Part shown: one piece after another, positions 5,598 through 25,220 of the stretch | Layout of the letters: each line of letters opens with the position of its first letter | Position numbering within the stretch: the stretch's first letter is position 1 | DNA from: Candidatus Aenigmatarchaeota archaeon | GTDB lineage: Archaea; Aenigmatarchaeota; Aenigmatarchaeia; JACPZZ01 | DNA length: 32,000 nucleotides | NCBI GenBank assembly: GCA_016202815.1 | Contig: JACQNZ010000002.1 | Coordinates: forward strand, 48,228 to 80,227 | Direction of reading: 5' to 3' | The notes under the pieces: model-generated | What the model was told of the DNA's origin: nothing | Databases searched by the model: none | The model's input: only the letters and a program-made list of their open reading frames with translations | Made by a program: the position numbers and the translations under genes

Positions 5598-5921
5598 TCA
5601 GGCTGTGTATTTCTTGGTTATCTCTATGATCTTCGCTGTGTCGCCGTCTGAAAGGTCTATGATATCCTTCTGGAACAAGACCTTTACCTCTTCCGCTGTT
5701 TTGGGCAGGTTGTTTATGATTTTTACGACCAGGTCCTCGCGCAGCTTTTCCACGGAGCGCAACTCCTCGGCTATCTTTTCATCGTCTTCCAGTTTCGAAA
5801 ATTTGCGAAGATGTTCCATGCTGGATTTCTGCTCGTAACTTAACGTGCCTTCCTTCTCCCTGTCCTCCAGCATTTTTTTTGCTTTCGGGTATGATATGAA
5901 CTTTTCCTCTATGGTTTTCAT
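5598..5921 (-). CDS. rpoF: DNA-directed RNA polymerase subunit Rpo4 (RpoF)
   Basis: 107 aa with the pattern YPKAKKMLEDREKEG...EQKSSMEHLRKFSKL...KIINNLP...VKVLFQK typical of archaeal RpoF. It shows the conserved rpl21e-rpoF adjacency with an ATGA overlap. Confidence 0.75.
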   Translation of the reverse strand: MKTIEEKFISYPKAKKMLEDREKEGTLSYEQKSSMEHLRKFSKLEDDEKIAEELRSVEKLREDLVVKIINNLPKTAEEVKVLFQKDIIDLSDGDTAKIIEITKKYTA

Positions 5922-6202
5922 TTTTCCAGCCTCTTGATGTGTTGCGGCTTCACGGCCAGAGTCTTCATTTTGTTGCCGTCCATTACGCTGACAACGTAGG
6001 CGTCGCCGCGCCTGCCTTTGACTTTTCCTGCCATCCCCTTGAACCTGGGAAACGGCATGCCTTGCGGGGACGCGGAATCGGGCAATATTACAACTGTGTC
6101 GCCCTCCTCAAAGGCCTGAAGATACCTAGTAATGGGCGTTTTGGAATGTTTCCTAAGCTTTTTCTTTGTTCCCCAGCGCACACCGTGCGATCTTGTTACC
6201 AT
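5918..6202 (-). CDS. rpl21e: 50S ribosomal protein L21e
   Basis: The sequence MVTRSHGVRWGTKKKLRKHSK...GDTVVILPDSA...FPRFKGMAGKVKGRRGDAYVV is a classic L21e sequence. Confidence 0.9.
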   Translation of the reverse strand: MVTRSHGVRWGTKKKLRKHSKTPITRYLQAFEEGDTVVILPDSASPQGMPFPRFKGMAGKVKGRRGDAYVVSVMDGNKMKTLAVKPQHIKRLEK

Positions 6203-6218: not shown

Positions 6219-6253
6219 CTGAAGCGTGTCTATGCTACACTGACACGCTTCTG
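6219..6253. repeat. Diverged member of the same hairpin family, between pus10 and rpl21e
   Basis: CTGAAGCGTGTC-TATGCTACACT-GACACGCTTCTG has a 10-bp perfect stem, the same GAAGC/GCTTC base, and the same TATGCT loop start as copy 3. Confidence 0.5.
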
Positions 6254-6274
6254 TTTACTTAGCCTATAAATGTA

Positions 6275-7555
6275 TTAAACCTTGATATTCTCTATCTTCA
6301 CAACATCCAAAGCCTTTACCTTGGCCTTGTTGCCCAGAATTCCGGTAAATGACGGCTCTGTGCGGCCGTCGTCGCCTGTCACAAGCTCCTTTACATACAT
6401 GCCGGCCTCGGTCTTTATCAGAAACTCGGCCCGCCTCTTGGACAATATGCTGCCGGTCAACCCGAGTATCCGCCTTTCGCGGACCAGGTCAGCCCTGCGG
6501 TGCGCAACCCTGCTCGGCGTGCGCTGCTTTACCAAGCTCTTTATCTTGATTATCTTCCTCAAATCCTCCCTGTTGACAGGCTTTTCAAAATCAACTATTA
6601 TCCTGTATGTCTTTGTCAGCCTGGCCGCCTTTATTTTTCTTGCCGTATCCTTGTCGCAGAACTTAACCAGCCGCACCTTGACGCGCCTGTCTTTGTTTAC
6701 CTGCTTTTCCATTTTTTTCAGGTCGATATTTCGCAGTATTGGCTTTTCCAATTCCATCACAAACGGCCGCCAACCTAGGCAGCGCGCGTCTATGTCCTCG
6801 CGTCCAGCGCCGTGCATGCTGCTGCCAGACGCTTTAGCGGCCTTTAACATAGGTTTCGCTATTATTTCCTCCACGGATGTCGCATACATCCTGCCTTTGT
6901 TTTTGCATTGTTTGCAGCCGGCGCCGCCGCAATGCCTGCACGGCCACTTTGTCTGCGGTATGCCGCGTACCAGCTTCTGGTACAGGCCGTAAACCCATAC
7001 CTGCGAGGGCTTTATCTCAACGTCGCCTTTGCCCATGTCAAAAAGGACCGTAATGTCGGGATTTTCAAAATTCGCTTTTTTGCCTGTCTGCTTTTCCAGC
7101 AATTTTCCAAGTTCCCTGTTTATTTCAGCCTTTATCGGTTCGCAATGTTCTGTGCCTATTTCTTCCCACAACGCCTCTTCGTTCGTGACGACGCTGCCGG
7201 CGACTTTTGTGCCAACGACAAAACTCCGATACTCAAATCCGGAAAGTTTTTTTACAGCTTTTTTGGAAATCGTGTCCAGGTTGTCGAAAAAATTGGAACA
7301 GATCCTGCATGATTTTTTTTGCTTTTCTTTCTTCATTTTCGAATTTCGGAAAACGTAGCCGGCCAGATTTGACTTGTCTATCGGGGTTTCCTCGCCGGCA
7401 TCCTCTGCAAATGCGAAAATGTCCCTGATCGCCTTTCCTCTGGAATCATTAGTCGTTCCTTTGGTCAGCTGGCCAAACTGCCGCCCGAGGCAATGGTCGC
7501 ATATGTAACCGTTCTTCAGTATCGTCTCGGCCCTTTCCAAAACTTTTGTTGTCAT
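6275..7555 (-). CDS. pus10: tRNA pseudouridine synthase Pus10
   Basis: 426 aa with N-terminal CxxC zinc motifs (CDHC, CRIC, CRHC..CKQC), a THUMP-like middle region and a C-terminal PUS core (RTPSRVAHRRADLVRER...GMYVKELVTGDDGRT). Confidence 0.8.
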   Translation of the reverse strand: MTTKVLERAETILKNGYICDHCLGRQFGQLTKGTTNDSRGKAIRDIFAFAEDAGEETPIDKSNLAGYVFRNSKMKKEKQKKSCRICSNFFDNLDTISKKAVKKLSGFEYRSFVVGTKVAGSVVTNEEALWEEIGTEHCEPIKAEINRELGKLLEKQTGKKANFENPDITVLFDMGKGDVEIKPSQVWVYGLYQKLVRGIPQTKWPCRHCGGAGCKQCKNKGRMYATSVEEIIAKPMLKAAKASGSSMHGAGREDIDARCLGWRPFVMELEKPILRNIDLKKMEKQVNKDRRVKVRLVKFCDKDTARKIKAARLTKTYRIIVDFEKPVNREDLRKIIKIKSLVKQRTPSRVAHRRADLVRERRILGLTGSILSKRRAEFLIKTEAGMYVKELVTGDDGRTEPSFTGILGNKAKVKALDVVKIENIKV

Positions 7556-15830: not shown

Positions 15831-15840
15831 CGGGTAACCC

Positions 15841-15861
15841 GAATCAGGCATAACCTGATTC
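15841..15861. terminator. Perfect 8-bp hairpin between convergent 3' ends (DedA-like gene and tRNA)
   Basis: GAATCAGG-CATAA-CCTGATTC. Any function as a terminator or processing signal is inferred only. Confidence 0.3.
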
Positions 15862-15872
15862 AGTCTGTCGAA

Positions 15873-16099
15873 TGCTCCCGCCGCGATTTGAACGCGGGTT
15901 TAGAGGTATCTGCCAAGCATTTTCTTTTCTGTCTGCTTTCGTTTGGTTGAGCTTTGCCATTTAATTTATCTTGGTTGGTTTTTGCTCTTCAATTTCTTTT
16001 GGTTTGGCTTTGCTCTTTAATTTCTTTTGGTTGAGCTTTTCTTTTGAAAGAAAAGGTCATCCGCAACCTCTTGTCTTGTCCAGGCTGGACCACGGGAGC
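15873..16099 (-). tRNA. tRNA-Arg (anticodon GCG) with an intron of about 153 nt at the canonical 37/38 position
   Basis: The minus-strand exons give a 74-nt cloverleaf.
- Acceptor stem: GCUCCCG pairs perfectly with CGGGAGC, followed by discriminator A.
- D arm: GUCC-AGCCUGGACA-AGAC.
- Anticodon arm: AGAGG-UUGCGGA-CCUCU.
- Variable loop: AAAC.
- T arm: CCGCG-UUCAAAU-CGCGG.
No CCA is encoded. A TATA-like TTTATTTTTAAA lies about 25-30 nt upstream. Confidence 0.75.
15908..16060 (-). other. tRNA intron, A-rich on the RNA strand, containing about three degenerate ~29-nt tandem repeats
   Basis: The plus-strand repeats TTTGCTCTTCAATTTCTTTTGGTTTGGC (15981-16008) and TTTGCTCTTTAATTTCTTTTGGTTGAGC (16010-16037) are about 25/28 identical. 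TTGGTTGAGCTTT recurs at 15944 and 16028. At the RNA level a hairpin CUUUUC-UUUCAAAA-GAAAAG sits at the intron 5' end. Confidence 0.6.
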
Positions 16100-16168: not shown

Positions 16169-16363
16169 ATGGAACAACAGGTGGAAATTACTAAAACTGA
16201 CAAAAAATTGTGCACTACCTGCGGGTCTGTTGTTGCCTACGTAGGCACGTTCGTGGAGTTCATGTGCCCAAACTGCGGCTCAGATTTGATACGCCGCTGC
16301 GAAAAATGCAAGAACTTCAGCAACAAATACAAATGCTCCAAATGCGGTTTCGAAGGGCCGTGA
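16169..16363 (+). CDS. Small Zn-ribbon protein of the type conserved upstream of aEF-1beta (COG2888-like)
   Basis: 64 aa with CTTC...CPNC...CEKC...CSKC. It has the conserved position upstream of aEF-1beta in archaea. Confidence 0.6.
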   Translation: MEQQVEITKTDKKLCTTCGSVVAYVGTFVEFMCPNCGSDLIRRCEKCKNFSNKYKCSKCGFEGP

Positions 16364-16492
16364 AGAATTAGAAGCGGTCGAAAAAATGAAACATACCGTA
16401 ACAGCTAGAAGCATATCGTATTAACTAGAAGCATGCCGATACAATATACGGCATGCTTCAGGCAACTGTGTTTCCAGCAACTCATGCTTCAG
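16362..16492. repeat. Intergenic array of GAARCAT units forming a long imperfect palindrome with a perfect 11-bp core hairpin (copy 1)
   Basis: The core is GAAGCATGCCG-ATACAATATA-CGGCATGCTTC (16428-16459). Direct units start at 16388, 16408 and 16428 (20-nt period), and inverted units end at 16459, 16474 and 16490. Confidence 0.7.
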
Positions 16493-16503
16493 ACGGTGAT
16501 CGA

Positions 16504-16761
16504 ATGGGAAATGTGATGGTAACTTTTCGCGTAATGCCTGAATCGACTGAAACAGACCTGGAAAAGATCAAGGCGTCGCTTCTCAAAATAGGCGCAAAAA
16601 AATTAAGCGTCGAACCGCTGGCTTTTGGGCTGAACGCTGTCATGGCGTATTTCATCGTGCCTGATGCGGAGGGCGGAGCCGAAGAGCTCGAAAAAGCCGT
16701 CAAAAAGGTAGAAGGCGTGTCGGAAGCGGAAATAACAGAGGTCAACAGGACATTGTTCTAG
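16504..16761 (+). CDS. ef1b: Translation elongation factor aEF-1 beta
   Basis: MGNVMVTFRVMPESTETDLEKIK...PLAFGLNAV...VPDAEGGAEELE...VEGVSEAEI. The ATG at 16504 has GGTGAT 4 nt upstream. The track's longer start at 16453 lies inside a hairpin repeat. Confidence 0.85.
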   Translation: MGNVMVTFRVMPESTETDLEKIKASLLKIGAKKLSVEPLAFGLNAVMAYFIVPDAEGGAEELEKAVKKVEGVSEAEITEVNRTLF

Positions 16762-17866: not shown

Positions 17867-18895
17867 ATGGGCGTGCAGATATCGGACATAATCGAAAAGG
17901 ATCCGGTTGAAATGGACAGCTTATCAGCCAAGGTTGTCGCCATCGACGCGTATAACACCCTTTACCAGTTCCTGTCAAGCATACGCCAGCCCGATGGCAC
18001 TCCTCTAATGGACACGGCAGGCCGGGTGACATCCCACCTTTCAGGCCTTCTGTACAGGACGTCAAGATTTATCGAAGCCGGCATGCTGCCGGTGTTTGTT
18101 TTCGACGGCAAGCCTCCCGCATTCAAGAATGTCACGCTCGAGAAGCGCGCACTGGTAAAGGCCGAGGCCGAAAAAAAATTGGAAGAGGCGTTGGCGAAAG
18201 GCGACATGGAGCAGGCCCGCAAGGCTGCGCAGGCCGCATCACGCCTGACAAAGGACATGGTCGCAGAAGCTAAAAACCTTCTAAACCTCATGGGCATCCC
18301 TGTGGTGCAGGCTCCAAGCGAAGCAGAAGCGCAGGCCGCGCACATGACAAAACGCGGCAGCGCCTTCGCAACGGCCTCACAAGATTATGATTCGCTCCTG
18401 TTTGGGTCGCCGCGCCTGGTTAGGAATCTAACAATAACCGGAAAGAAAAAACTGCCGAACAAGGAAACGTACATTGAGGTAAGGCCCGAAATGGTGGAAC
18501 TAAAAAGAAACCTTGGCATGCTCGGCATCACGCAGGAAAAATTGATAGTTTTGGGCATTCTTGTCGGAACCGATTTCAATGTCGGCGGTATAAAAGGAAT
18601 AGGCCCAAAAAAGGCGCTTCACATCGTACAGACAAGAAGTGTGGATGAAATATTCACGGAAATGGATTTCAGCCCGTATGACCCGCAAATGATACTGAAT
18701 TTCTTCACAAACCCTCCCGTAGAAGACAATTACGAAATATCATGGAAAAAACCTGACGAGGAGGGGATAAAAAAAATGATGGTAGACGGGCATTCATTTT
18801 CGGAGGAACGTGTTGCAAAAGTTTTGGGGACCATGAAGAAGAAATCCCCGCACAGCCAGAAAAACCTAGGGTCATGGCTGAATCAAGCCGGCTGA
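17867..18895 (+). CDS. fen: Flap endonuclease 1 (FEN1)
   Basis: MGVQISDII..., VAIDAYNTLYQFLS, VFVFDGKPP, APSEAEAQAA, SQDYDSLLFG and GTDFN are the classic XPG-N/I and H3TH motifs. Confidence 0.9.
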   Translation: MGVQISDIIEKDPVEMDSLSAKVVAIDAYNTLYQFLSSIRQPDGTPLMDTAGRVTSHLSGLLYRTSRFIEAGMLPVFVFDGKPPAFKNVTLEKRALVKAEAEKKLEEALAKGDMEQARKAAQAASRLTKDMVAEAKNLLNLMGIPVVQAPSEAEAQAAHMTKRGSAFATASQDYDSLLFGSPRLVRNLTITGKKKLPNKETYIEVRPEMVELKRNLGMLGITQEKLIVLGILVGTDFNVGGIKGIGPKKALHIVQTRSVDEIFTEMDFSPYDPQMILNFFTNPPVEDNYEISWKKPDEEGIKKMMVDGHSFSEERVAKVLGTMKKKSPHSQKNLGSWLNQAG

Positions 18896-18941
18896 AGCAT
18901 GGATTGCTAGAAACATACCGATACAGTATACGGTATGTTTC
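18892..18941. repeat. GAARCAT hairpin element, copy 2
   Basis: CTGAAGCAT at 18892 contains the fen stop codon. The core is GAAACATACCG-ATACAGTATA-CGGTATGTTTC (18910-18941), a perfect 11-bp stem. Confidence 0.7.
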
Positions 18942-18980
18942 AGTTTTGTCATGACTCTGTCTGCAAAACGCCCGTGCCAA

Positions 18981-23400: not shown

Positions 23401-23444
23401 CGTAATAATCAACCGTGACATTCGAAACGCTAGATTATTACGTT

Positions 23445-24269
23445 ATGAAAACTCTCGATGATCTGGAAAGTTGGGAATATCCTTCCCTCCCTTTAAAGCG
23501 CGACGGCAAAAACCTGTTCATCGGGAGCGGCAACGCCTCCAGCGTGGCCGGCATATTCGCAAAAAAATTCGGCGGTAACGCCGTAAGCATAGCGAATTAC
23601 AGGGAATATTTGTCGTCACAAAGCGGATCGGACTTCGCTTCGATAAACATAATCAACGCTTCGGGCGGCAAGGACGGCGTGAACATGGCTTCGTTCCTTA
23701 AACAAAACGGATTTAATTTCAACCTGCTGACATGCAATCCGCAACCGCCGGCCGGCGAATTCCTGCCGAAAGAAAACATATTCATTTTTCCTTCGTTCGT
23801 CGAACCGCCGACTTACAACGTGAGCACGTACGCGTCCATGATATACGCGATAATGAAAGAACGTGTGGCTGACATAAAAGAAAAAATAAGGACTATGGAA
23901 ATACCTGATCTCAGGAAATACAAATTTATTTTTTTTGTCGCAGAAGACAAATACGAACTGCCCGCAATAATGTCGGCGAGAAAAGTCGGCGAATCGTTGG
24001 CTGGTTTAGGTTCGGCCGGAGAAGGCATATCTTCAGCGCAGCATGGGATGATTGTGCATGAGAATGATAACCGCCTGGATTTCTGCATGAACTGCGAAAC
24101 AGGCACAAAAAACGTTTACAAGCTCGAAATACAATCGTACCTTGGGCTCGTGATGTCCGCCTATTACATCATAGGAAAGAACCAGACAGAATCGGATATG
24201 GGAAACATAATGAAAAATTACCAGTCAACGGCGCAAAAGCTCGGCTGGAAATTCAACAAGGTGTGGTAG
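23445..24269 (+). CDS. Hypothetical protein with weak SIS/sugar-isomerase-like motifs
   Basis: I prefer the ATG at 23445 to the GTG at 23415. FIGSGNASSVAG and INASGGKDGVNMASFLKQNG loosely resemble SIS-domain loops. The functional call is low confidence. Confidence 0.45.
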   Translation: MKTLDDLESWEYPSLPLKRDGKNLFIGSGNASSVAGIFAKKFGGNAVSIANYREYLSSQSGSDFASINIINASGGKDGVNMASFLKQNGFNFNLLTCNPQPPAGEFLPKENIFIFPSFVEPPTYNVSTYASMIYAIMKERVADIKEKIRTMEIPDLRKYKFIFFVAEDKYELPAIMSARKVGESLAGLGSAGEGISSAQHGMIVHENDNRLDFCMNCETGTKNVYKLEIQSYLGLVMSAYYIIGKNQTESDMGNIMKNYQSTAQKLGWKFNKVW

Positions 24270-24276
24270 TCGTAAC

Positions 24277-24354
24277 TGGAAACACACGCATCGTAAACTG
24301 AAGCATACCGTATGCTGTATCGGTATGCTTCTAGTTGTTATGCGTATGTTTCAG
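24277..24354. repeat. GAARCAT hairpin element, copy 3 (inverted orientation), a symmetric two-unit palindrome
   Basis: The core is GAAGCATACCG-TATGCTGTAT-CGGTATGCTTC (24300-24331). Outer units at 24279 and 24352 are symmetric about the same centre (21-nt spacing). Confidence 0.7.
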
Positions 24355-24366
24355 TCTGCTCCGACC

Positions 24367-24398
24367 AAAACCGATGCATACTATATTGCATCGGTTTT
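24367..24398. terminator. Perfect 12-bp hairpin flanked by T/A runs, overlapping the ogg stop codon
   Basis: AAAACCGATGCA-TACTATAT-TGCATCGGTTTT is followed by T on the plus strand. On the minus strand the hairpin ends in UUUU. This would be bidirectional terminator-like geometry. Confidence 0.4.
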
Positions 24399-25151
24399 TA
24401 GTTGTCTCGCATGGCAAAACAAATACTGGTTTGCATAGCCGGCGTATTTGCCCCACCTGTCAAAAGCAAAATCCGTTATTTTCGCGTCGCTTGTTTTTTT
24501 CCCGCCAAAATAATTTTCAGTCATTGTCTTCCGTATCCATGTATCTGTCGGAAACGACTCCAAAAAACCGTAGCCGAACAATAAAATACAATTTGCAACC
24601 TTATTCCCTATTCCGTGCAGCTTTGTTAAATGCCCAACCGCTTCCTCGTACTTCATTTTATTTATTTCGCTCATCGAATGCCCGCCGATAATCATCTCTG
24701 CGGTCTTTTTCAAAAATTTCTGGCGGAATCCCAGTCGCGCAAAATTTATGTCCGTGTTTAATATTTCTTCGGGCGTCATGACCCTGCCGCCGGCCATCAG
24801 CGACTGTACGTTTTTGCGGATCCGTTTTATGTTGTTGTTTATCGAGCAGACGAACGCCAGCGTCGTCTCCCACGGTTCGCTCTTCGTTATACGCAGCCCG
24901 CGGTATTTTTTAATCGCTTCATCCATTACGTCGTCCGTGTTTATTTTTTTGTATATCTTCTCCAGGTCGTCGTCCTCCCTGAGAAGCTCGTTGGCATAAT
25001 CCATAAAACCGTCTGTAAACCGCAACTCACCGTCGTGCCACAGCTCGCAAAGCCTCCCGCCGACCAGGCGCGAGAACCTTCCGTCTGAATCGTCCCAGAC
25101 AAACTCGGGCGTCTGCCCGCTTTTCATTGTTAATCGCAGATCAAGCAACAT
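24381..25151 (-). CDS. ogg: 8-oxoguanine DNA glycosylase/AP lyase (Ogg1-type, HhH-GPD)
   Basis: LRLTMKSGQTPEFVW, EPWETTLAFVCSINNNIKRI, and the HhH motif LHGIGNKVANCILLFG with the catalytic Lys, followed by FPTDTWI with the Asp. Confidence 0.8.
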   Translation of the reverse strand: MLLDLRLTMKSGQTPEFVWDDSDGRFSRLVGGRLCELWHDGELRFTDGFMDYANELLREDDDLEKIYKKINTDDVMDEAIKKYRGLRITKSEPWETTLAFVCSINNNIKRIRKNVQSLMAGGRVMTPEEILNTDINFARLGFRQKFLKKTAEMIIGGHSMSEINKMKYEEAVGHLTKLHGIGNKVANCILLFGYGFLESFPTDTWIRKTMTENYFGGKKTSDAKITDFAFDRWGKYAGYANQYLFCHARQLKTDAI

Positions 25152-25220
25152 CAAGCTATTATTCGGCCCTCGGCTTTAATAACGCTTATCTTTTTGATTG
25201 ACCTTTTATTAAAAGGTCAT

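Follow-up and report, generated by a model that had tools for sequence, protein, structure and literature searches.

Repetitive extragenic palindromes (REPs) of bacteria, together with bacterial interspersed mosaic elements (BIMEs) and REP doublets forming hairpins (REPINs), are imperfect, multi-copy palindromes of 20-40 nt that lie between cistrons and after stop codons, often in clusters, with complementary changes and a consensus common to related species (PMC2817692, PMC3733652, PMC3116915). Tiny mobile hairpins also occur in the intergenic spacers of organelle genomes, as the repetitive hairpin elements (RHEs) of sponge mitochondria, the double-hairpin elements of Allomyces and the GC clusters of yeast mitochondria; these form single, double or triple hairpins with conserved stems and variable loops, one sponge element sits in the large rRNA gene, and their mechanism of movement, at the DNA or the RNA level, is unknown or disputed (PMC2800124). 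Archaea have MITEs (miniature inverted-repeat transposable elements) and the end hairpins of IS200/IS605 insertion sequences, which are short and non-autonomous and have inverted symmetry, as well as tRNA introns bounded by bulge-helix-bulge (BHB) motifs, for which 'intron transposition' has been described: related sequences occupy non-canonical positions in several tRNA genes, and their presence or absence differs among related genomes (PMC4090602). Here we describe, from a group of tiny archaea of groundwater, a family of short nested hairpins in a Candidatus Aenigmatarchaeota archaeon, found in a 32,000-nt stretch of contig JACQNZ010000002.1 (the window, whose own numbering is used throughout), where a composite element fills the spacer between a Zn-ribbon gene and the gene for aEF-1beta. 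We consider it somewhat probable that these hairpins are a REP- or MITE-like family of mobile DNA palindromes, selfish or neutral, and specific to the Aenigmatarchaeota lineage. REP/MITE-like was also the label given in a preliminary description of the window, made from its letters alone, and it is still the best one.

The family resembles each of these systems in the respects listed and differs from all of them. Its host is an archaeon, and copies also lie inside tRNA and rRNA genes. It has neither the GTAG nor the CGTC tetranucleotide head of REPs (PMC3733652), and no gene for a REP-associated tyrosine transposase (RAYT, of the Y1 type) flanked by two inverted family repeats, another REP feature (PMC2817692), was found in the partial genomes covered; the family is outside the REPs as defined by head motif and RAYT, and outside any Rfam family. 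In BIMEs the REPs stand side by side, alternating and with fixed linkers, whereas family copies are nested, with outer arms flanking inner copies. The hairpins of organelles belong to organelle genomes and are unrelated in sequence, and the nesting in own loops and the loop inversion documented here are not documented for them in PMC2800124. The 37-nt unit is far smaller than a typical MITE and is one palindrome, without terminal inverted repeats bounding unrelated DNA. Unlike the BHB introns of tRNA genes it is mainly extragenic, and a BHB built by the element is only putative.

A composite hairpin between the Zn-ribbon and aEF-1beta genes

In the window 140 nt (16364-16503) separate the stop codon of the Zn-ribbon open reading frame (ORF) from the aEF-1beta start codon, whereas in nine other archaeal contigs the two overlap or lie no more than 14 nt apart. 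Because these genes are adjacent in other archaea, the spacer is, on this sequence comparison, an insertion, as the preliminary description had proposed. The periodic units reported there begin on the left at 16388, 16408 and 16428, at a spacing of exactly 20 nt (Tandem Repeats Finder: period 20, 2.5 copies, 77% matches), and are followed on the right by TGTGTTTC at 16467-16474 and CATGCTTCAG at 16483-16492. At the centre, arms GAAGCATGCCG (16428-16438) and CGGCATGCTTC (16449-16459) are 100% complementary and make the predicted 11-bp hairpin with its 10-nt loop. The whole spacer folds as one long imperfect hairpin, again as had been suggested, both as RNA (-39 kcal/mol, z = -3.85, none of 200 shuffles being equally stable) and as DNA (-20.7 kcal/mol, z = -3.2). 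The right flank is shared with another element of the window, termed copy 3: GTGTTTCCAG stands at 16468-16477 and its reverse complement at 24277-24286.

The build of arm, collar and CTA seen in the two outer left arms is also present in composites of other genomes. On the right the arms are degenerate, and the composite is now decaying on this side; their junction type, TTTC-YAG-CAACY-CRTGMTTC-AG, recurs in two related loci (L052 and L071; loci outside the window are given L numbers). Near the left end, at 16368-16381, stands what looks like a collapsed copy, in which a 5' foot and the start of an arm would be fused to the usual 3' flank GG-TCGA.

Distribution and anatomy of the family

The pattern GAARCRTRYCG-N10-CGRYAYGYTTC, which matches the window three times against 0.02 matches expected, was scanned over 185,579 species genomes and found in 95 DNA stretches. 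More than half of these (54/95) come from seven archaeal metagenome-assembled genomes (MAGs), five labelled Candidatus Aenigmatarchaeota and two 'uncultured archaeon', and hold 57 strict copies, in all of which the loop is ATACAGTATA, a close variant of it or the reverse complement. Single matches in unrelated bacteria, with unrelated loops and about as many as chance would give, make up the remaining 41 stretches. The hairpin family is confined to Candidatus Aenigmatarchaeota (DPANN), and a pattern search of the kind recommended in the preliminary description shows the element to be a repeat family and no one-off. The window is syntenic with several family loci at 65-82% nucleotide identity and therefore belongs to the same clade.

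A covariance model, R1, built from 42 copies of other genomes and none from the window, finds three strong copies there (18907-18943, 24298-24334 and 16425-16461, at 59-63 bits and E about 1e-15) and one weak one. It thereby recovers independently the related copies noted earlier at 18892-18941, 24277-24354 and 6219-6253, the last of them diverged. All four window copies are intergenic and adjoin stop codons, so that the statement that copies are always at gene ends is true of the window; it fails for the family, which also enters tRNA genes and a 23S rRNA gene.

No known family accounts for the element, in line with the earlier failure to match it. At the gathering threshold Rfam matches nothing in the window, and below it the strongest hit within 16200-16650 has E = 1.4; in the 54 related loci only tRNA and large subunit (LSU) rRNA are matched, with no family for the element; a known RNA family was rejected, as Rfam gave nothing for it at gathering or E-value thresholds. 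We found no comparable repeat family reported for archaea, and none for DPANN, in the searchable literature. A scan of IMG/VR gave five matches, none with the family loop or flanks, and a viral origin was rejected on that ground. Three related IMG/VR contigs (L119-L121; for example L119 3525-3556) carry GAAGCATACCG-GTATTATTAC-CGGTATGCTTC, in which the stem equals the family consensus while the loop, flanks and GC-rich context are unlike it; this match is probably due to chance.

The unit is an imperfect hairpin of 37 nt with the core CTA-GAAGCATACCG-(ATACAGTATA or reverse complement)-CGGTATGCTTC-AG, the consensus of the aligned cores being CTA-GAAGCATACCG-(T)ATA-C[A/T]G-TAT(A)-CGGTATGCTTC-AG. 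A foot, CT(A)/AG, with one bulged base supports the 11-bp stem, and the apparent 10-nt loop is a stem extension ATA/TAT round a loop of 3 nt, with one bulged base on the 5' or the 3' side. The flip and flop forms of the loop are exact reverse complements and occur 28:28 relative to the asymmetric foot (CTA...AG versus CT...TAG); the ortholog pairs L011/L089 and L039/L085 are each distinguished by a loop flip. Flank consensus sequences are (C/T)AG-CTA on the 5' side and AG-T(T/C)(T/G)AC on the 3' side, the latter usually AGTTTA or AGTCGA, and the flanks often read AG/CTA...AG/ (slashes marking the ends of the element). Beyond mere pairing, the sequence of stem and loop is kept across seven species.

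We note that short-read or MAG contigs often start or end inside the hairpin core, as at L001 12-48 and 2505-2520, at L002 1401-1424, and at the ends of L029, L034, L051, L075, L077, L078, L081 and L090. Copy numbers in the MAGs are therefore underestimates.

Nesting and the 20-nt period

Around a core there often stand one to three more helices of the type CT(A)GAAnCA.....TGnTTCAG. Among 13 two-module composites the outer helix is 96.5% paired, with 6 of its 11 pairs changing on both sides and only three G-U cells; no shuffle reached this covariation, and slid controls were about 33% paired. Composite subfamilies, for which the inner stem type, the collar and the outer stem are diagnostic, turn up repeatedly at unrelated loci of different genomes. 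The collars of nested copies (..CG-TAACAG / TTTACG-A..) resemble a core loop split together with the top of its stem (CCG-ATACAG / TATACGG), and in L098/L099 the core loop has itself taken in a double hairpin of 49 nt that belongs to another family.

The 20-nt period is the sum of an arm (11 nt), a half-loop collar (6 nt) and the foot CTA (3 nt), and the nesting of copies in the loops of existing hairpins, their own included, explains the periodicity. The spacing had been taken at first as possible helical phasing for cooperative protein binding; that interpretation finds no support here, since the period follows from arm, collar and foot and the spacing varies elsewhere, arms in other composites being 19-21 nt apart on the left and 16-21 nt on the right.

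The hairpins might still be sites, as duplex, cruciform or single-stranded hairpin, for a conserved host DNA-binding protein, of which a composite would bind several, although we regard this as very unlikely. Conservation of stem and loop sequence across the seven species would fit such a protein, as would a symmetry suited to a dimer, the regular arm spacing near 20 nt, and the use of bacterial REP/BIME elements by gyrase and IHF; the function would moreover ignore loop flip and orientation, as is observed. However, the halves of the outer module lie 60-170 nt apart in composites and would make a site only upon hairpin extrusion, the spacing varies over 15-33 nt and is accounted for by nesting, and between close species sites come, go or are exchanged. 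The presence of copies in tRNA and rRNA genes also speaks against it, and no candidate protein was identified.

A second family, of small 'double hairpins', was seen in the same lineage, consisting for example of TGAGAAAAYC-GATA-GATTTTCTCA and a partner hairpin. It is found in the core loop of L098 (1680-1740) and L099, in intergenic spacers of L059 (5540-5600 and 6240-6290), and within the coding sequence of an IS200-type transposase at L122 1495-1545 and L123 115-165, where it splits the gene.

Insertion sites, gain and loss

Copies sit in the loops of older copies, in a terminator-like hairpin, in the variable and D regions of tRNAs, in a tRNA-Trp intron and in a terminal loop of 23S rRNA. 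No cores were found in credible coding regions, the related genomes being fragmentary MAGs with crude ORF calls. The comparison of filled with empty sites at orthologous positions is the most informative evidence. The empty site in L052 is a terminator-like hairpin, GGGCGCA-AAC-TGCGCCC, and in L061 the insert lies in the loop of the same stem. In L095 the element, here an insert of 50 nt, replaces the GCAA loop of the 23S rRNA helix TGTA-GCAA-TACA, which is empty in L076 and lies about 110-130 nt before the LSU 3' end (the LSU of L076 being delimited by Rfam as 1-1362); the position in L095 rests on alignment to L076, as the Rfam LSU alignment gave no hit on L095 at the gathering threshold. 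We take this site to be near helix 98 of 23S rRNA, a region known to tolerate insertions. Further filled/empty pairs are L039/L085 versus L069/L059, L014 versus L098, and L088 versus L011, and one tRNA has, in L011 and L089, a small hairpin of the family type in its D-arm region that it lacks in L009.

The 23S rRNA gene of MAG JACPZZ also has an 864-nt insertion relative to MAG JACPAF (L095 938-1802 versus L076 860-884). With its ORF (L095 1214-1669), it is probably an rRNA intron that carries a gene of homing-endonuclease-like kind.

At one orthologous site L046, L064 and L086 differ in the subfamily of their composite, three being present in all, and sites are therefore re-used or overwritten. 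At the Zn-ribbon/aEF-1beta spacer L032 has a clean two-module composite, L098/L099 an outer right arm and a core whose loop holds the foreign double hairpin, and L014 only TAA-ACAGCTAGAAG-TGATTAA-ATG. ACAGCTAGAAG was considered as a target site and rejected: it matches the 5' collar and foot of the element over 11 nt and is for that reason read as a deletion remnant. On this reading the insertion is older than the split of these lineages, four with that of the window, and afterwards it grew, decayed or disappeared.

A T-arm motif stands no more than 150 nt away from 12 of the 60 cores. We do not claim a special link to tRNA genes, as the excess is at most two-fold and cores and tRNA genes alike are limited to the non-coding part of the genome, roughly 10-15%. 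A family hairpin also directly follows the stop codon of a tiny conserved ORF with a Cys/Gly-rich tail (...SGCCGCGCGC*) in three of four species (L019 7495-7577, L078 and L096) and lies upstream of it in the fourth (L018).

We read these patterns to mean that new copies land mostly in the single-stranded loops of existing hairpins, older copies included, and that repeated nesting builds 'Russian-doll' composites such as that at 16364-16503, with arms every ~20 nt on the left and every 15-21 nt on the right. Insertion into a loop would do no more than lengthen an existing helix, which may be why it is tolerated between cistrons and behind stop codons, in the variable and D regions of tRNAs, in introns and in a 23S rRNA loop. 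The arms would be kept complementary and the loops flipped by processes at the DNA level, likely template switching in quasi-palindromes and conversion between copies, and the stable stem-loop in transcripts would be a by-product and not the reason for the element.

DNA palindrome or selected RNA

The preliminary description offered a structured RNA as an alternative and proposed a covariance model with a search for compensatory changes. Covariation in the stems proved strong, but of the kind that DNA palindromes give, with G-U pairs almost absent. Covariation alone is not decisive, since arm-copying processes such as template switching in quasi-palindromes keep DNA palindromes perfect. Orientation was compared with the direction of transcription in a crude count of flank orientation, automatic calling of foot orientation being too ambiguous for use: between co-directional genes 6 cores are sense and 15 antisense, and nine strict copies lie between divergent genes. 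Taken together, the stem covariation, the scarcity of G-U pairs, the 28:28 loops and an orientation independent of transcription indicate that the palindrome is one of DNA and not an RNA fold under selection.

It is accordingly unlikely, in our judgement, that the hairpins are functional RNA stem-loops selected in transcripts, whether as stabilisers of 3' ends against exonucleases, as signals for inter-cistronic processing or insulation, or as terminators, and that copies persist since cells need a stable hairpin at gene ends. Their position next to stop codons would agree with such a role, as would the very stable RNA fold of the spacer and of composites generally (-40 to -55 kcal/mol), the retention of an element at some orthologous sites despite a change of subfamily, the constant sense orientation of the outermost module inside RNA genes, and a foot that is often G-U on the 'sense' strand (4/13 sequences at pair 23-59). 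Yet a terminator or cleavage site would be harmful inside tRNA and 23S rRNA genes, where sense copies occur; copies between divergent genes and the excess of antisense copies between co-directional ones are untied to a transcript; and neither the random loop orientation nor the near absence of G-U from the stems would be expected. The copies do not fit an intrinsic terminator in particular: the 3' flanks AGTTTA/AGTCGA have no run of five or more T behind the cores, and beside copy 3 stands a separate terminator-like hairpin with T-runs (24361-24400). A C/D or H/ACA guide RNA was rejected, as the spacer has no C, D or ACA boxes in register. Nor is the element a CRISPR array, since its arms face each other across the centre as inverted and not as direct repeats and the 'spacers' are conserved collars of 6-10 nt.

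Copies in tRNA genes

Elements are found in the variable arms of tRNA-Ser genes (L009, L011/L089 and L059), in the D-arm (L011/L089), in L023 and L024, and in a tRNA-Trp intron (L035), and all tRNA copies are sense. These positions raise the possibility of an intron-like element that enters the loops of structured RNAs and is excised at BHB motifs by the archaeal splicing endonuclease, seeding non-canonical tRNA introns; we hold this to be improbable. The BHB was defined as hBHBh', two 3-nt bulges 4 bp apart, and this geometry recovers the intron of the window's tRNA-Arg exactly, the cut positions giving an intron-less tRNA-Arg(GCG). One relaxed BHB spans the L059 element, its central helix taking one strand from TCGACG, the usual 3' flank of the family; in-silico splicing of this tRNA-Ser(GCU) yields the variable arm TGGC-GTTAA-GCCA with the predicted junction ...TTGGCGTTAA/GCCAGC.... 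The clean product is no test of the junction, as ARAGORN accepts 395 of 529 nearby L059 excisions.

Against an intron-like element, a relaxed BHB spanning the core is equally common on both strands (28/52 sense, 31/52 antisense) and not enriched, the pairing register of the collars varies among copies, the rRNA copy in L095 has no BHB, most copies are intergenic, and no reverse transcriptase was seen. A self-contained BHB intron of general, portable design finds no support, since BHB-like motifs round the elements have neither enrichment nor strand bias. Splicing of the tRNA copies is nevertheless plausible. The element may also be mobile and seek out loops, entering those that are single-stranded in rRNA helices and in the variable, D and anticodon regions of tRNAs and so giving structural RNAs new introns and expansion segments, with the TCGACG flank and the collar helping to form a BHB by which the host endonuclease removes it; this we think quite unlikely, but if true, the origin of non-canonical archaeal tRNA introns would have a present-day example in this element.

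The tRNA-Arg(GCG) gene of the window (15873-16099, minus strand) has a 153-nt intron with a perfect bulge-helix-bulge, consisting largely of 3.7 copies of a 28-nt tandem repeat (15937-16039). In L014 the orthologous intron measures 100 nt and in L032 74 nt, and a related one, starting CCTTTCTTTCAAAAGAAA, interrupts another tRNA, that at L077 74-200.

Search for a mobilising enzyme

IS200-type Y1 transposases, which act on single-stranded DNA hairpins, are encoded in the lineage of the family. In archaea only the ordinary IS200 subclass of Y1 transposases has been observed, the REP-associated subclasses being bacterial (PMC6006769). A search with phmmer (with an IS608 TnpA query), confirmed by Pfam Y1_Tnp, found a 156-aa Y1 transposase at L032 604-1074 on the minus strand (Pfam E = 1e-30), 1.3 kb from the L032 copy. 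Its homologues are mostly on one or two contigs each and seemingly single-copy per contig, one of them coming from the window's own sample series, and the Y1 genes of the clade (L032, L122-L125) have no adjacent tnpB. The hairpins that flank them, CTGCGGGC-TTCA-GCCCGCAG, CCCCGCACT-AA-AGTGCGGGG and AGCCCTATCACTCA...TGAATGATAGGGCT, are unlike the family sequence. None of the Y1 genes at the three loci examined is flanked by a family hairpin, and a REP-with-RAYT system was rejected for this reason.

Several observations weigh against a family of mobile DNA palindromes. No mobilising enzyme is linked to the element: R1 finds no family core near any of the three Y1 loci (L032, L122/L123 and L124/L125, all in partial genomes), and the Y1 gene of L122/L123, the one from the window's own sample series, is interrupted by the unrelated double hairpin. 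No parent element was found, and filled/empty pairs show no consistent target-site duplication, a further difference from MITEs, nor a target motif. Inside tRNA and rRNA genes the outermost module always has the same orientation relative to the RNA (8/8 as judged by eye, about six of them independent: L009, two sites in L011/L089, L059, L023, L024, L035 and L095), which hints at some constraint at the RNA level. The core hardly varies between species that share only 65-88% identity in coding DNA; ongoing activity or conversion can explain this, as can selection through a conserved binding partner. Finally, the related loci amount to about 450 kb and were picked for carrying the element.

Other copies and neighbours in the window

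The remaining copies are listed in Table 1. Copy 2 has an orphan outer left arm, CTGAAGCATGG, that overlaps the FEN1 stop codon (18893-18895), the stop being supplied by the arm CTGAAGC; its ortholog in L083 has a G-C version of the stem and a flipped loop. The outer helix of copy 3 is GAAACATACGC/GCGTGTGTTTC, and its ortholog in L071 has at least four arms. The element at 6219-6254, which has the genes for Pus10 (6275-7555) and L21e (5918-6202) as its neighbours, is by its R1 score a diverged relative. A small hairpin adjoining the tRNA-Arg 3' end (15838-15863) is a possible weak relative; at this site L014 has a full two-module element and L098 has nothing.

The hairpin directly beside copy 3 at 24361-24400, AAAACCGATGCA-TACTATAT-TGCATCGGTTTT, has T-runs on both strands and stands between the convergent genes 23415-24269 (+) and 24381-25154 (-). 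It looks like a bidirectional terminator.

Table 1. Coordinates of the hairpin elements in the window and of the genes flanking the composite spacer
Feature	Position	Strand	Remarks
Zn-ribbon ORF	16169-16363	+	Pfam HVO_2753-type zinc finger; TGA stop at 16361-16363
Composite element, three left and three right arms round one core	16364-16503	+	fills the whole Zn-ribbon/aEF-1beta spacer
TTAGAAGC/GGTCGA join	16368-16381	+	compared with flank consensus
Two outer left arms with collars, GAAACATACCG-TAACAG-CTA and GAAGCATATCG-TATTAA-CTA	16388-16427	+	the 20-nt units
Core hairpin with feet, CTA GAAGCATGCCG ATACAATATA CGGCATGCTTC AG	16425-16461	+	R1: 59.5 bits, E = 6.6e-15
Degenerate outer right arms, GCAACTG-TGTTTC-CAG-CAACT-CATGCTTC-AG	16462-16492	+	CGG/CGA ends lost
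aEF-1beta	16504-16761	+	Pfam EF1_GNE; ATG at 16504, GGTGAT just before
Copy 2	18892-18943	+	core CTA GAAACATACCG ATACAGTATA CGGTATGTTTC AG at 18907-18943; R1: 63.1 bits
Copy 3, two-module composite in reverse orientation	24277-24354	-	core 24298-24334; R1: 62.7 bits, minus strand
Diverged copy, GAAGCGTGTC-11 nt-GACACGCTTC	6219-6254	-	R1: 24 bits, E = 1e-4
Small hairpin, GAATCAGG-CATAA-CCTGATTC	15838-15863		R1: 10 bits, E = 1.4, not significant

Implications

Bacterial REP-type repeats have been studied in depth, and organelles have hairpin elements of their own; for archaea we found no comparable family in the searchable literature. DPANN genomes are very small and gene-dense, and a proliferating non-coding element is unexpected in them. 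A simple rule, insertion into hairpin loops including the element's own, yields periodic and seemingly designed arrays without function. For work on these organisms the family matters in two practical respects: the repeat breaks metagenomic assemblies at its copies, with consequences for binning, and it is a sequence tag specific to one Aenigmatarchaeota clade. With its copies in tRNA and rRNA genes, the family offers a natural system in which to test how non-canonical tRNA introns and rRNA expansion segments originate.

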